Part shown: positions 23,680-28,198 of the stretch, piece after piece | How the letters are laid out: each line of letters opens with the position of its first letter | Numbering within the stretch: the stretch's first letter is position 1 | DNA from: Anaerolineae bacterium | GTDB taxonomy: Bacteria > Chloroflexota > Anaerolineae > B4-G1 > DUEL01 | DNA length: 64,000 nt | Assembly: GCA_036172315.1 (NCBI GenBank) | Contig: JASFBC010000018.1 | Span: forward strand, 246-64,245 | Direction of reading: 5' to 3' | The notes under the pieces: generated by a model | Told to the model about the DNA's origin: nothing | Seen by the model: the letters and a program-made list of their open reading frames with translations, nothing else | Databases searched by the model: none | Translations under genes and position numbers: made by a program

Positions 23680-24186
23680 TTATAATCCAGATTGACCGAG
23701 CAGCAACTCCTCCGAAACCACCCTCACCCCCTCCCGCCGCAGAAGGGCGGCGGTGACGCCTTCCCCGGAGACCAGCCGCCCACTATGGGTTCCGTCGTAG
23801 ATGCCGGAAGGGCTACAGGAGGGGCTGCGGGCCTTCATCACGGCCAGCCGGATACCGTACCGCCGGACCAGAGCCAGCGCCGCTTCTGCTCCCCGAAGGA
23901 AGGCCTCCGTCACGTCCTCCCCCACTGGGGTGAGGACGCGCGCCCGGCCATCCAGAACGTCGCTGCCGCTGCCGCCGGCGATCTCCGCCGGCGGACGGGG
24001 TACCGAAAGTCCGCCCGCTACCTCCGGGCAGACCGGGACCACCCGCCCCAGCGCCGCCAGCCGGACCAGTTCCGCCACAGCATGCCCACCCCCGTCGTAG
24101 GCTATGGGCAACCCCAACAGACACGCACTGACCAGGATCACATCCTCCCCGTTCATCGTTCTCTCCCGGATAACAAAATCTGCCAT
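23680..24186 (-). CDS. DUF523-family protein (2-thiouracil desulfurase-like family)
   Basis: ILVSACLLGLPIAYDGGGH...PVCPEVAGGLSVPRPPAEI matches the DUF523 core. The start could instead be the internal ATG at 24156. Confidence 0.6.
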   Translation of the reverse strand: MADFVIRERTMNGEDVILVSACLLGLPIAYDGGGHAVAELVRLAALGRVVPVCPEVAGGLSVPRPPAEIAGGSGSDVLDGRARVLTPVGEDVTEAFLRGAEAALALVRRYGIRLAVMKARSPSCSPSGIYDGTHSGRLVSGEGVTAALLRREGVRVVSEELLLGQSGL

Positions 24187-24280
24187 GTATTATACCCTTC
24201 CCCACCAGAAAGCAAGATGGAGAGAAGGCCTCCCCCGGCACCCCTGCCCTGCCTTGTATCCGAACCTCAGGGCCTCCCCC

Positions 24281-24345
24281 TTGACATCCGGCAAGAACTG
24301 TGCTATAATCATAGCGCATTAGTTCAATGGATTATTAGTTCAATG
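24281..24345 (+). promoter_or_regulatory. gntR promoter (TTGACA-17-TATAAT) plus tandem direct repeat ATTAGTTCAATG x2 (putative autoregulatory operator)
   Basis: TTGACA at 24281-24286 and TATAAT at 24304-24309. Repeats lie at 24318-24329 and 24334-24345, the second overlapping the ATG. Confidence 0.65.
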
Positions 24346-24720
24346 AGATTGCAGATAGAGCCCCAGAGCCCGATCCCCATCTACGTCCAGATTGAGGAGC
24401 AGGTGCGGGCACTGATTGCGGCGGGGCAACTGCGCCCCGGGGACCAGTTGCCCACCATCCGCCAACTGGCCGTGGACCTGGGGGTGAACTACAACACCGT
24501 TGCCCGGGCCTACCTGGAACTGGAGCGCGCCGGGGTCATCACCACCCAGCGCGGGCGGGGGACCTTTGTCGCCGGAGTGCCGGACGAGGCCCGGCAAGCC
24601 CAACTGCGGGAGGAGAAACTGCGCGCCCTCCTGCGGGCGGCGATAGACGAGGCGCTCCGCCTGGGATATACTCAGGATGAAATCACGACCGCGTTCCGGC
24701 AGGAAGTCGGACGCGGATAA
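24343..24720 (+). CDS. GntR-family transcriptional regulator, YtrA-like (short C-terminus)
   Basis: IPIYVQIEEQVRALIAAGQLRPGDQLPTIRQLAVDLGVNYNTVARAYLELERAGVITTQRGRGTFV is a GntR wHTH. 125 aa. Confidence 0.85.
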   Translation: MRLQIEPQSPIPIYVQIEEQVRALIAAGQLRPGDQLPTIRQLAVDLGVNYNTVARAYLELERAGVITTQRGRGTFVAGVPDEARQAQLREEKLRALLRAAIDEALRLGYTQDEITTAFRQEVGRG

Positions 24721-24726
24721 CCGCAG

Positions 24727-25779
24727 ATGAACCCGGAGGAGTTCAAAGAAATTCTACTACCGACAAAGGAGGCAATGATGGTCGTAGTTCCGGCAACTCA
24801 ATCCCGGCGCGGGGAGCGCGCCCTGGTATCGGGGACGGTTCAGCGGAAAGAGACCGCCCTAAAGGGCTTCAGCGGACTGGCCCTGGGCATCTTCTTCATC
24901 CTGCTGGTTGTCTCCCTCATCCTGGCCGTCATCCTGGATGCCCTGGAAATCCCGGACGGCTGGATTGCCGCTGAGGTCGTCGTCCTCAACCTGGTGGGCC
25001 TCTACATCCTCTTCGCCTTGCGCGTCGCCAACCAGTGGGAGAAGGCCATCGTCCTGCGGCTGGGGCGCTTCCGGGGCCTCAAAGGCCCCGGCCCATTCTG
25101 GGTCGTCCCGGTCGTGGATACCATCCCGGCGATGGTGGACCATCGGGTGATGGTCACCCCCTTCACGGCGGAGCGGACGCTGACGAAGGATTCGGTGCCG
25201 GTGAACGTGGATGCCGTCCTCTTCTGGGTGGTCTGGGATGCGCAAAAGGCCGTGCTGGAGGTAGAGGACTACCAGACCGCCATCGCCTGGGCCGCCCAGA
25301 CGGCCTTGCGGGAAATCATCGGTCAGATGGACCTGGCCAGCATCCTGGTCGGACGGACGGTGATGGACGCCGAACTCCAGCGCATCATTGACGAGCGGAC
25401 GACGCCCTGGGGGATCACTGTCCAGTCGGTGGAAATCCGCGATATCGTCATCCCGGAGGCGCTGGAGGATGCGATGAGCCGTCAGGCGCAGGCGGAGCGG
25501 GAGCGGCAGGCGCGGGTCATCCTGGGGGAGAGCGAGAAGCAGATCGCCGCGTCTTTCGCCGAGGCCGCGCAGGCCTACCGGGATAACCCCACCGCGCTCC
25601 ACCTGCGGGCGATGAACATGCTCTTTGAGGGACTGAAGGAGAAAGGCGCGCTGGTCATCGTCCCCTCCAGCGCGGTGGAGACAATGAATCTGGGCGGGCT
25701 GATGGGAGTGGCCTCTTTGACGGGCACCCTGCAGACGCTCCTCGGAGGACAGCCCCCGGCCCCGCCCCAGGAGGGTTGA
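24727..25779 (+). CDS. SPFH/band-7 (stomatin-like) membrane protein
   Basis: N-terminal TM helices, then the SPFH core QWEKAIVLRLGRFRGLKGPGPFWVVPVVD...VNVDAVLFWVVWDAQKAVLEVEDY. Coiled-coil C-terminus. Confidence 0.85.
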   Translation: MNPEEFKEILLPTKEAMMVVVPATQSRRGERALVSGTVQRKETALKGFSGLALGIFFILLVVSLILAVILDALEIPDGWIAAEVVVLNLVGLYILFALRVANQWEKAIVLRLGRFRGLKGPGPFWVVPVVDTIPAMVDHRVMVTPFTAERTLTKDSVPVNVDAVLFWVVWDAQKAVLEVEDYQTAIAWAAQTALREIIGQMDLASILVGRTVMDAELQRIIDERTTPWGITVQSVEIRDIVIPEALEDAMSRQAQAERERQARVILGESEKQIAASFAEAAQAYRDNPTALHLRAMNMLFEGLKEKGALVIVPSSAVETMNLGGLMGVASLTGTLQTLLGGQPPAPPQEG

Positions 25780-25780
25780 G

Positions 25781-26284
25781 ATGGCCACCGAGGTGCGGCG
25801 GGCAGATCAGATAGAGGTCATCCCTTCCGGCTTCCTCAGCCTCCGCTACGAGTTTCGCTCTCCTGGAGGAACGCTGGGGGCACTGACCCTCCCCGCCTTC
25901 CGAACGGAGGGCCGGTTTCAGGACGCCGATGGCCGCCAGTGGCGGATGCGGCGGAGCCACTGGTGGCGGCGGGAGTATGAACTGCGGGCCGACGACGCGG
26001 TGGCGGCAACGGCGCGGGGACGGGGGTTCTGGCGGACCGACCTGGACCTGGAATTTGGAGGGCAGTTGTATCGGCTGGAGTCCGCTGACCGCTGGGGCGG
26101 GAAGTGGCGACTCCTGGGCCCGGCGGGGACAGCGCTGCTGGAAATCCGGCGGCGCGGGGTGCTGCGCTCGGGGCTGGTCGTGGACGTGCGGGGGCCGGTG
26201 GCGGGGGAACTGCTGGCCTTCGCCGTCTACCTGATCGTGACCATCGGGCGGGAGCACGCAGCGGCCGCGGCTGCCAGAGCGTAG
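25781..26284 (+). CDS. Hypothetical Trp/Arg-rich protein with C-terminal hydrophobic segment
   Basis: Starts 2 nt after the SPFH stop with an AGGAGGG RBS. No family recognised. Confidence 0.45.
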   Translation: MATEVRRADQIEVIPSGFLSLRYEFRSPGGTLGALTLPAFRTEGRFQDADGRQWRMRRSHWWRREYELRADDAVAATARGRGFWRTDLDLEFGGQLYRLESADRWGGKWRLLGPAGTALLEIRRRGVLRSGLVVDVRGPVAGELLAFAVYLIVTIGREHAAAAAARA

Positions 26285-26333
26285 AGCAACGTGCCAGGCA
26301 CTTCCGGAATTCCTGGCGCATTCAGGAGGCAAA

Positions 26334-27104
26334 ATGTTGATTCCGGCGTTTATCGCGGAGATTCTCATCATGTTGGGCGCGCCGGTGGCGCTCTGGCTCT
26401 TCCTGCGGCAGAAGTATCGGGTTGCCTGGGGGCTGATCGGGGTGGGCGTGCTGACCTTCATCATCTCCCAGGTGGTACATATTCCGCTGAATCTGGGCTT
26501 GGGCCTGATCGGAGAGGGGCGCGGGGGGGCGTTATGGCCTCTGCCGGCGATGGCCGCTGTGGCGGGCATGAGCGCTGGGGTCTGCGAAGAGGGGGCTCGC
26601 TACCTGGTGCTCCGTTTCTGGCGAAAGGAGGCCCGCTCCTGGGCCCAGGGACTGGCCTTCGGCGCCGGGCACGGGGGGATAGAATCCATCTTGTTGGGGC
26701 TCTCCGTCCTGAGCGGTTTCGTCGGCATGCTGGTGCTCAGCAGGCTGGGTCCCGAAAACCTGGGGCTTTCCGGGGAACTGCTGGAGCAGACCCGACAGCA
26801 AATGGAAGCGTACTGGGCGATTCCCTGGTACCTGCCGCTTCTGGGCGGGCTGGAACGGGTCTTCGCTATCACTATGCACCTGGCCTGGACACTACTGGTG
26901 CTGCGGGCAGTGGTGCGGAGAAACCTCTTCTGGCTGGCCCTGGCGGTACTGGCCCATGCGCTGGTGGACGGGCTGGCCGTCGGCCTGATGCGGTCGGGGG
27001 TGTCCCTTCCGGTGATAGAGGGGGTGGTCTTCCTGCTGGGGCTGGGCGCGCTGGCCCTTATCCTGTTTCTGCGGCCGCGCGAGGCGGAAGCCGCCGATGG
27101 ATGA
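26334..27104 (+). CDS. YhfC-family (CPBP-related) putative intramembrane metalloprotease
   Basis: Polytopic membrane protein with CEEGARY (EExxR), AFGAGHGG and HALVDG motifs, as in YhfC/CPBP intramembrane proteases. Confidence 0.5.
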   Translation: MLIPAFIAEILIMLGAPVALWLFLRQKYRVAWGLIGVGVLTFIISQVVHIPLNLGLGLIGEGRGGALWPLPAMAAVAGMSAGVCEEGARYLVLRFWRKEARSWAQGLAFGAGHGGIESILLGLSVLSGFVGMLVLSRLGPENLGLSGELLEQTRQQMEAYWAIPWYLPLLGGLERVFAITMHLAWTLLVLRAVVRRNLFWLALAVLAHALVDGLAVGLMRSGVSLPVIEGVVFLLGLGALALILFLRPREAEAADG

Positions 27105-27364
27105 GGCGTGCGCCCGCGCGGGATAGAAACGCGGAAGCACCCTGAGGAAGCGCAGGTACCCCCTGCGCTCCTCATTTCCACCTGTGCGGTTCGCCAGTTT
27201 TTGAAACGCTTCTTGGCCTGGGTGTCACCCGGGAACCGCACCGGTGGATTTTTTTCGTTCGCCCCTTTTCCGCTTTGTGCTATAATTAGCGCGCGATGCC
27301 CCAATTGGCCCGGGACGTTTCACGTGAAACAATTCAGAACGCCTGCTCCCCGGGAAGTCAGGAA

Positions 27365-28198
27365 ATGGATCCCGCCCTGTATTCCCATCTCATAGACCTG
27401 GCCCTGGCCGAGGATATCGGCCCCGGAGACGTTACCTCGGAGGCGGTGCTGCCGCCAGGCCTTCGCCTCCGCGCCCATATCGTCGCCAAACAGGGAGGAG
27501 TCATCGCCGGGTTGCCCGTTGCCGAGGCCGTCTTCCGGCGAGTGGACCCGTCCGTCCGCTTCACCCCGGGCGTCGGAGACGGCGCGCAGGTGGAGGCCGG
27601 GACCGTCCTGGCGGAGGTGGAGGGGCCGGCCCGAAGCCTCCTGGCAGCGGAACGGACCGCCCTCAACTTCCTCCAGCGCCTCTCCGGTATCGCCACCTTC
27701 ACCCGCCGCTTCGTGGATGCCGTCGCCGGGACGCGCGCCATCATCCTGGACACCCGTAAGACCCACCCTGGCTGGCGGGCCCTGGAGAAGTACGCCGTCC
27801 GCATGGGCGGCGGGCGGAACCATCGCATGGGCCTCTACGATATGATCCTCATCAAGGACAATCATATCGCGGCGGCAGGTTCCATCACCGAAGCCGTCCG
27901 GCGGGCCCGCGCGGCCTGCCCCGACCTGCCCCTGGAGGTGGAAGTCAAGAATCTGGACGAACTGCGGGAGGCATTGGAACTGCCCGTGGACCGGATTATG
28001 CTGGACAACTTTGACTTGGAGGGCATTCGTGCCGCCGTCCGCATCGCCGCCGGACGGGTGCCGCTGGAGGTCTCCGGCGGGGTGACGCTGGAGCGGGTCG
28101 CCGAACTGGCCGCGACGGGGGTGGACTATATCTCCGTGGGCGCGCTGACGCACTCCGCCCCGGCGCTGGATATGAGTATGGAAGTGGTAGGCAAGTAG
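27365..28198 (+). CDS. nadC: Nicotinate-nucleotide pyrophosphorylase (quinolinate phosphoribosyltransferase)
   Basis: LIDLALAEDIGPGDVTS...ILDTRKTHPGWRALEKYAVRMGGGRNHRMGLYDMILIKDNHI is a clear NadC signature. Confidence 0.9.
   Translation: MDPALYSHLIDLALAEDIGPGDVTSEAVLPPGLRLRAHIVAKQGGVIAGLPVAEAVFRRVDPSVRFTPGVGDGAQVEAGTVLAEVEGPARSLLAAERTALNFLQRLSGIATFTRRFVDAVAGTRAIILDTRKTHPGWRALEKYAVRMGGGRNHRMGLYDMILIKDNHIAAAGSITEAVRRARAACPDLPLEVEVKNLDELREALELPVDRIMLDNFDLEGIRAAVRIAAGRVPLEVSGGVTLERVAELAATGVDYISVGALTHSAPALDMSMEVVGK

Follow-up and report, generated by a model that had tools for sequence, protein, structure and literature searches.

Four adjacent genes in a 64,000-nucleotide stretch of DNA from an Anaerolineae bacterium (assembly GCA_036172315.1, contig JASFBC010000018.1, positions 246 to 64,245; hereafter the window) encode a GntR-type repressor of the YtrA subfamily, a stomatin-type SPFH protein, a small basic protein of 167 amino acids (aa) and a YhfC-family intramembrane protease candidate. 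On balance, the sequence evidence makes it probable that they represent a self-repressing YtrA-type regulon that consists of one operon and acts in membrane stress or defence, in which repressor and stomatin are fixed and the remaining cargo varies by lineage. Three aspects of this arrangement appear to be new, namely that repressor and stomatin are coupled almost without exception in one clade of Chloroflexota, that NfeD is missing and YhfC or CPBP is often found instead, and that the operators are tandem repeats. The YtrA-type GntR protein, the stomatin-type SPFH protein and YhfC belong to known families, and the 167-aa protein represents a family that is new in sequence and is predicted to have a known fold. 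The features of the region are the following.

24281 to 24309, + strand: sigma-70-type promoter, with the -35 box TTGACA at 24281-24286, a 17-nt spacer and an extended -10 box TGcTATAAT (TG at 24301-24302, TATAAT at 24304-24309)
24318 to 24329, + strand: putative operator repeat 1, ATTAGTTCAATG, starting some 1-2 nt downstream of the inferred transcription start and conserved in loci L002, L007, L008, L009 and L011
24334 to 24345, + strand: putative operator repeat 2, ATTAGTTCAATG, which includes the gntR start codon (ATG at 24343-24345)
24343 to 24720, + strand: gntR, a 125-aa YtrA-subfamily GntR repressor (PF00392, E = 1.9e-19)
24775 to 25779, + strand: stomatin-type SPFH protein, 334 or 333 aa long depending on which of two adjacent in-frame ATGs (24775 or 24778, respectively) is used (longest open reading frame, 24727-25779)
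25781 to 26284, + strand: 167-aa basic protein, predicted tubby/LURP-one-like barrel, starting one base after the SPFH stop and translationally coupled to it
26334 to 27104, + strand: YhfC-family (PF10086) glutamic-type intramembrane protease candidate, polytopic, with the Shine-Dalgarno sequence AGGAGG upstream
27177 to 27255, + strand: intrinsic terminator, a long G+C-rich stem at 27177-27247 followed by seven T residues at 27249-27255

The evidence for a fixed pair with variable cargo comes from gene order in related loci. We used three independent samplings, centred on the 167-aa protein, on YhfC (80 loci) and on stomatin (80 metagenome loci that carry no taxonomic label); counts are taken from the best 80 loci per scan, are biased toward relatives of the window and include incomplete contigs. 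Sixty of the stomatin-centred loci extend at least 500 nt upstream of stomatin; gntR lies directly upstream of it in 58 of these 60 and further upstream in the other two. The YhfC-centred set holds one genome per species, almost all from Chloroflexota, and has 61 loci with at least 4 kb upstream. An ortholog-grade stomatin is encoded upstream on the same strand in 20 of these 61, from Chloroflexota metagenome-assembled genomes (MAGs) labelled with several orders, and 19 of the 20 have gntR beyond it in the same orientation. The distance from stomatin to YhfC ranges from an overlap to 4.4 kb. Three YhfC loci carry gntR without stomatin (gntR-ABC-YhfC, gntR-CPBP-YhfC and one other), and in a fourth, with less upstream sequence, gntR is directly followed by YhfC. 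Because the adjacency of gntR and stomatin is kept so consistently while YhfC occurs in part of the loci, the invariant core as judged from sequence is gntR-stomatin, and YhfC is a frequent but optional addition.

A first-pass annotation of this DNA, made from the letters alone, had described all four genes as one module. Homologue names place the window in Thermoflexales-like Chloroflexota, and in Thermoflexales the order GntR-SPFH-167aa-YhfC is indeed syntenic; moreover, GntR-Band_7-167aa was found in every 167-aa-centred locus with enough sequence. In one Thermoflexales MAG, full synteny with the window extends from the 2-thiouracil desulfurase gene on the upstream side to nadC and a DUF362 gene on the downstream side, and the same MAG has an extra CPBP gene and a URO-D gene between gntR and stomatin. 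The annotation had named as grounds for its refutation an unconserved gene order or a last open reading frame outside the protease families; since the order is conserved and the last frame matches PF10086, neither applies. The part of the proposal that did not stand is the identity of the conserved unit, which is gntR-stomatin and not stomatin-YhfC.

The genes downstream of this core are diverse. In the 31 stomatin-centred loci with at least 3 kb downstream, we found DUF4177 genes in 14, SdpI/DUF1648 in 11, tubby-like genes in 7, CPBP in 3, either YhfC or CPBP in 11, and none of these in 7; several of the loci without those genes carry ABC-2 transporters. Accessory families confirmed by Pfam in related loci are DUF4177, bPH_2, Zn_ribbon_13 (in one locus), DUF1648 with SdpI, and Rce1-like proteins. 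In Anaerolineales, small DUF4177-like proteins with a WEYRV…GWE motif stand directly after stomatin, in the position that the tubby-like protein occupies in Thermoflexales; some have a C-terminal transmembrane segment, and two or three copies can be present (L015:4458-4676, L036:5990-6406, L052:1564-2803 and many L1xx loci). In L002:4051-8944 (GCA_017880035.1, JAEDZT010000260.1), an ABC-2 transporter gene follows gntR and the Band_7-167aa-YhfC block occurs twice in tandem. The first copy of that block is split and shortened (Band_7 frames of 133 and 195 aa, YhfC of 220 aa), and the arrangement may reflect a recent duplication with decay or the assembly of two strains.

In the window itself, the four genes look like one operon, extending from about 24316 to about 27255. 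This reading is favoured because the gaps from gntR through yhfC are short (54, 1 and 49 nt), Shine-Dalgarno sequences precede genes two to four (AAGGAGG at 24766-24772 for the SPFH gene, GGAGGG for the ATG at 25781, AGGAGG for the ATG at 26334), no promoter- or terminator-like sites were found between the four genes, and a strong terminator follows yhfC. The 171-nt terminator region folds better than shuffled sequences (z = -4.7), with a shorter hairpin at 27144-27173 preceding the terminator stem 3′ of yhfC. The promoter agrees with all 12 of 12 consensus positions, as the earlier annotation had recognized, and carries a TG extension as well; its -35 and -10 boxes are invariant across 10 aligned relatives. 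Sites of the form TTGACA-17-TATAAT with at most one mismatch occur three times in the window, versus 0.03 expected from shuffles, and only two are perfect, the second being that of lexA. The interval between the -10 box and the gntR ATG has a G+C content of 33% versus 64.7% for the window, and gntR, with an AT-rich leader of about 26 nt, lacks a Shine-Dalgarno sequence. No RNA elements were found in the leader or spacers when the whole window was searched with Rfam at gathering thresholds and with ARAGORN.

The two direct 12-bp copies that had been noticed between promoter and gene, the second overlapping the gntR ATG, are exact. Their start-to-start spacing is 16 bp, and the 12-mer ATTAGTTCAATG has no other exact copy in the window. 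The only near-match, at 1599-1610 with two mismatches, was rejected as a second GntR site, as it is a GAAC-N4-GTTC LexA box in the lexA promoter. In the relatives, gntR is in all cases preceded by a near-consensus promoter, and the stretch from the -10 box to the start codon contains direct repeats in tandem. The closest relatives retain a pair of TAGTTCAAT-containing repeats at the identical 16-bp spacing although their flanks have diverged; the first copy is inverted in L012, L013 and L003, two 17-bp repeat units are found in a small group of relatives, and the repeats in L011 are separated from the gntR ATG. Anaerolineales carry three to six tandem 8-bp units of the form ATACAAnn, of which the first is the -10 hexamer (gntR upstream regions of L031, L036-L038, L040, L064, L069, L070, L084 and L101-L168). 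In a regular-expression scan of both strands of 1.52 Mb of fetched loci, arrays of at least three 8-bp units were directly ahead of gntR, on its strand, in 28 of 28 cases. Furthermore, the recognition helix differs by repeat type, reading VNYNT..AYLEL in proteins paired with TAGTTCAA and VNFNT..AYR.L in those paired with ACAA arrays. Because the position of the repeats is conserved, the arrays are exclusive to gntR promoters and the helix differs with the repeat type, the repeats are very likely a GntR binding site and an autoregulatory operator, which the earlier annotation had offered as a candidate function. The sequence data also indicate that the regulon consists of one operon, as is usual for YtrA regulators (PMC4494728).

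The repressor was correctly assigned to the YtrA type. Its winged helix-turn-helix (PF00392) covers residues 14-76 with no second domain, and residues 5-114 align nearly full length to YtrA-type structures of 121-134 aa, the closest solved relatives being Lmo2241 (4ham), Lin1836 (3neu) and Sulfolobus YtrASa (6sbs). From its length and this alignment, a short C-terminal region of about 50 aa takes the place of a ligand-binding domain, and as in other YtrA systems the operon contains membrane-protein genes, to which relatives add ABC-2 transporters. Similarity to the NCBIfam Rv1152-type and PmtR-type models falls below their cutoffs (70.9 bits over residues 1-77 for PmtR). YtrASa represses its own gene through a site that spans the transcription start, and it controls genes for membrane proteins (PMC6746942). 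The system described here thus resembles the YtrA autorepressors (B. subtilis YtrA, S. aureus PmtR, Sulfolobus YtrASa and Listeria Lmo2241/Lin1836) in its size (about 125 aa, of which the C-terminal tail makes up some 50), in being the first gene of a probably self-repressed operon, in its membrane-protein or ABC-exporter targets and in a predicted site that covers the transcription start. It differs from them in having as operator, in place of a long palindrome, a tandem direct repeat of 16-bp period (relatives use 8- or 17-bp units), and in that the constant partner is stomatin rather than an ABC transporter.

That partner is of stomatin type, in keeping with its first description as stomatin-like. 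Searches matched it to Band_7 (PF01145) at 1.1e-36, to the P. horikoshii stomatin PH1511 (3bk6) at 5e-40 and to human stomatin at 2e-39, with weaker matches to QmcA (7e-26) and HflK (about 4e-10). We place its start at 24775/24778 because of the position of the Shine-Dalgarno sequence and an external gene call on an identical contig, which gives 333 aa and fits 24778; the start of the longest frame, at 24727, was rejected on the same grounds. Hydropathy reveals two N-terminal hydrophobic segments within residues 27-86, consistent with a membrane anchor, and since positive charges flank these segments on both sides, the SPFH domain should face the cytoplasm, with both termini cytoplasmic. Across lineages, the stomatin is 63-76% identical with long invariant stretches, as compared with about 40% for YhfC over the same range.

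Partnerships between SPFH proteins and proteases are the rule in the SPFH family (PMC2636767), and the 2009 survey of prokaryotic SPFH operons does not mention GntR regulators. The usual partner NfeD had no match among the operon genes and none in precomputed Pfam annotations of the related loci. The operon is only in part like the stomatin-NfeD operons (SPFH1; P. horikoshii PH1511/PH1510), with which it shares a stomatin-type SPFH protein, an N-terminal anchor and a membrane protease candidate; here NfeD is missing, the candidate is an optional glutamic intramembrane enzyme of the YhfC/CPBP superfamily, and a dedicated repressor comes first. Similarly, B. subtilis pspA-ydjGHI (samGHI) is an envelope-stress operon in which an SPFH gene is accompanied by genes for small membrane proteins or Zn-ribbon proteins, but the operon studied here has no PspA/ESCRT-III gene, a different regulator, and a membrane-anchored stomatin in place of the cytosolic YdjI.

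The third gene, which had been described as encoding a tightly coupled Trp/Arg-rich protein, does so (15.6% Arg, 3.6% Trp, pI 10.8). The protein has no Pfam match at E <=0.1 and no NCBIfam match, and 10 distant relatives have no Pfam match at E <=1. Nevertheless, a profile search of 1.84 billion cluster representatives recovered 403 relatives at E <=1e-3, and the best 150 of these are nearly all shorter than 230 aa, mostly about 150-170 aa; for one distant relative, P0209, the only recorded contigs are about 1 kb long and give no information on gene context. An AlphaFold2 model built from an alignment of 23 homologues (predicted local distance difference test score, pLDDT, 86.9; predicted template modelling score, pTM, 0.85) has 12 strands and a C-terminal helix at residues 142-166. 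When compared with the Protein Data Bank by Foldseek, the model matched At5g01750 (1zxu, LURP-one/DUF567) with an E-value of 7.8e-5 and a template modelling (TM) score of 0.65, and the tubby C-terminal domains 1i7e, 1s31 and 1c8z with probabilities of 0.99-1.0. The protein represents a bacterial family that lacks annotation and whose fold is predicted to be tubby-like. The predicted 12-strand barrel followed by a C-terminal helix is shared with the Tubby/LURP-one (DUF567)/phospholipid scramblase superfamily, whereas the family differs from it in being smaller (about 155-170 aa), bacterial and without a sequence match to LOR, Tub or Scramblase. Some genomes have two divergent tubby-like paralogues in tandem (tubby-like and paralogue coordinates: L011:5777-6817, L001:1586-2577, L014:6387-6911 and L010:6430-6921). 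Because in L010 and L014 yhfC comes right after the tubby-like gene and the upstream sequence covered contains no match to stomatin or gntR, the link between tubby-like protein and YhfC can exist by itself.

The last gene has the EExxR and His motifs attributed to it by the first-pass annotation, which had taken its product for a metalloprotease; current annotation instead makes the family a glutamic-type intramembrane protease, and source annotations name the homologues "YhfC family glutamic-type intramembrane protease". The match to PF10086 is strong (1.2e-35, 123.5 bits versus a cutoff of 24.2, 213 of 222 profile positions), and E85, E86, R89, H113, E174, R175 and H208 are invariant in 26 homologues, with D212 conserved in at least 90%. 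Paired glutamates, an arginine and two histidines define the Rce1/CPBP superfamily (PMC5874806), and the YhfC residues match this set. The catalytic residues are intact. An AlphaFold2 model (pLDDT 87.2) matched APH-1 chains with a probability of 1.0 and TM scores of 0.59-0.67; TMEM147-like chains also matched. Published work places DUF2324 beside APH-1 (as cited in PMC5874806 and PMC7387801), and this fold match agrees with that placement. The protein is like other members of the YhfC/DUF2324 family, within the CPBP-PrsW-APH-1 superfamily, in its Pfam match, its invariant EExxR, His and His residues and its APH-1-like predicted fold; there is no difference at the family level, and what is new is the stomatin and GntR context. 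A profile search found no solved structures related to YhfC by sequence, and no description of a function for the family was found in the literature searched.

These components suggest how the system might operate. GntR dimers would bind the tandem repeats over the transcription start, leader and start codon, and in doing so would block RNA polymerase and keep a very strong promoter off. A membrane-related signal would then release the repressor; by analogy with PmtR or YtrA, this signal might be amphipathic peptides or envelope damage, and a protein partner is another candidate. Because YtrA proteins have no ligand-binding domain, this release is not expected to proceed via a classical small-ligand pocket. 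Once expressed, stomatin would build an oligomeric cage on the membrane's cytoplasmic side, the basic tubby-like barrel would bind the anionic membrane surface or the cage, and YhfC would cleave or otherwise handle membrane-embedded peptides or proteins in or near the stomatin domain.

It is also conceivable, but improbable, that stomatin, with or without the tubby-like barrel, is itself the sensor, such that perturbation of the membrane alters the stomatin assembly, which then sequesters the YtrA repressor at the membrane or passes it to YhfC/CPBP for cleavage and thereby causes derepression. Eukaryotic tubby and scramblase proteins have been suggested to act as membrane-tethered switches. 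If this idea were correct, the operon would include a bacterial membrane-tethered transcription switch, and the adjacency of gntR and stomatin and the tandem operators would be parts of one new regulatory mechanism.

Several observations weigh against an autorepressed membrane-stress or defence regulon that includes a YhfC protease. Stomatin is absent from the vicinity of 41 of the 61 YhfC loci, and YhfC itself is downstream of stomatin in only 8 of the 31 loci examined for downstream genes. The best fold matches of the YhfC model are the non-catalytic scaffolds APH-1 and TMEM147, and Rce1 is not among the top matches. The covariation of recognition helix and repeat type is confounded by phylogeny. 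In addition, operators of the YtrA family are normally long palindromes (PMC4494728), and a direct-repeat operator is thus atypical for these regulators; no inverted repeat was found in 24270-24400. Among GntR proteins, direct repeats have nevertheless been described for the MocR type and for a few of the HutC type (PMC4494728). Finally, dimers that bind one face of the helix fit poorly with the 8-bp period seen in relatives, which may point to an unusual way of contacting the DNA or to polymerisation along it.

Two alternatives overlap with this general model. The better of them, possible but in our judgment somewhat unlikely, is that the operon is an immunity island against antimicrobial peptides or toxins, in which the YtrA repressor senses membrane-active peptides, stomatin is only a stabiliser and YhfC acts in the manner of Abi/CPBP immunity proteases. 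PmtR, to which the GntR protein has the sub-threshold similarity given above, senses phenol-soluble modulins (PSMs). The operons of relatives contain SdpI/DUF1648, CPBP (Rce1-like) and ABC-2 exporter genes, and prokaryotic CPBP members have been linked to protection from antimicrobial peptides (PMC5874806). However, the window operon has neither a transporter nor SdpI, the invariant partner is stomatin and not an immunity gene, and no bacteriocin or toxin gene was seen nearby. A known anti-phage defence system was rejected as well, since PADLOC, which covers anti-phage systems only, matched none of the four proteins.

More doubtful is a dedicated quality-control pair, in which the stomatin cage encloses or gates YhfC as in HflK/C-FtsH or the archaeal stomatin-NfeD/STOPP complexes, with YhfC replacing NfeD. 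This is in essence the membrane quality-control module put forward by the first-pass annotation, and its pairing of SPFH and YhfC does appear to be undescribed, as no link between YhfC or YtrA regulators and SPFH proteins was found in the literature searched. The rule of SPFH-protease partnership (PMC2636767), the lack of an NfeD gene in the operon, the presence of stomatin at a third or so of YhfC loci (20 of 61) in several labelled Chloroflexota orders and of YhfC or CPBP at 11 of 31 stomatin loci, and the filling of the protease slot by either of two families of one superfamily are all consistent with it. Against it, neither YhfC nor CPBP lies within 5 kb at most stomatin loci of the clade, unrelated genes intervene in the variable stomatin-YhfC interval, and L010 and L014 pair the tubby-like gene with yhfC where stomatin and gntR had no match on the upstream sequence covered. 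The repertoire of SdpI-type, CPBP, ABC-2 and DUF4177 proteins favours membrane stress or defence over a dedicated protease-control pair and points to a general membrane-stress or immunity operon, although the recurrence of one of two related protease families leaves a quality-control role some plausibility.

That yhfC merely happens to lie, with a promoter of its own, downstream of an unrelated gntR-stomatin unit is quite improbable. Many related operons lack YhfC, and the 49-nt spacer before yhfC contains an imperfect hairpin, but the gene is on the same strand, has a Shine-Dalgarno sequence and has no promoter- or terminator-like site in that spacer, and the linkage is kept across lineages in which YhfC is only about 40% identical. 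Least probable of all, and by our estimate very much so, is that the repeats are a by-product of the AT-rich leader (for example a translation enhancer or slipped duplication) with GntR regulating elsewhere: the 33% G+C of the region in a 65% G+C genome, the missing Shine-Dalgarno sequence of gntR and the normally palindromic YtrA sites would fit, but repeat position is kept across lineages though the unit changes, the Anaerolineales arrays start in the untranscribed -10 box, all 28 of the 8-bp arrays are at gntR promoters, and the L011 repeats stand apart from the ATG.

Several further features of the window were recorded. The hairpin in the spacer between the 167-aa gene and yhfC, at 26293-26317 on the + strand (GCCAGG…TTCCGGAA…CCTGGC), has no T-run and may serve in processing, stability or translation. 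Immediately beyond the operon terminator, an extended -10 string, TGTGCTATAAT, identical to that of the gntR promoter, is found at 27276-27286 (+) ahead of nadC (27296-28198); the -35 box of this candidate nadC promoter is poor (TTCGCC). On the other side, a 2-thiouracil desulfurase-family gene (23683-24186, - strand; PF04463, 7e-40) is divergent from gntR and shares with its promoter a 156-nt intergenic region; this neighbour is also present in the syntenic MAG L085. The second perfect promoter (1595-1623, +) lies ahead of the lexA frame at 1609-2313 (PF01726 and PF00717), and its spacer contains GAACGGATGTTC, an SOS box of the GAAC-N4-GTTC type; as judged from this arrangement, lexA is autoregulated with its operator inside a consensus promoter.

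The system belongs to largely uncultured Chloroflexota, and its functional reading derives from gene context. A repressor that is nearly always coupled to a stomatin nevertheless provides a concrete system for asking how the widespread, effector-less YtrA regulators sense their signals. For YhfC, the link with stomatin and with SdpI, CPBP and ABC-2 proteins offers a first testable context, namely membrane stress or peptide defence. Moreover, tandem direct-repeat operators with 8-, 16- or 17-bp units would broaden the modes of DNA recognition among GntR proteins.

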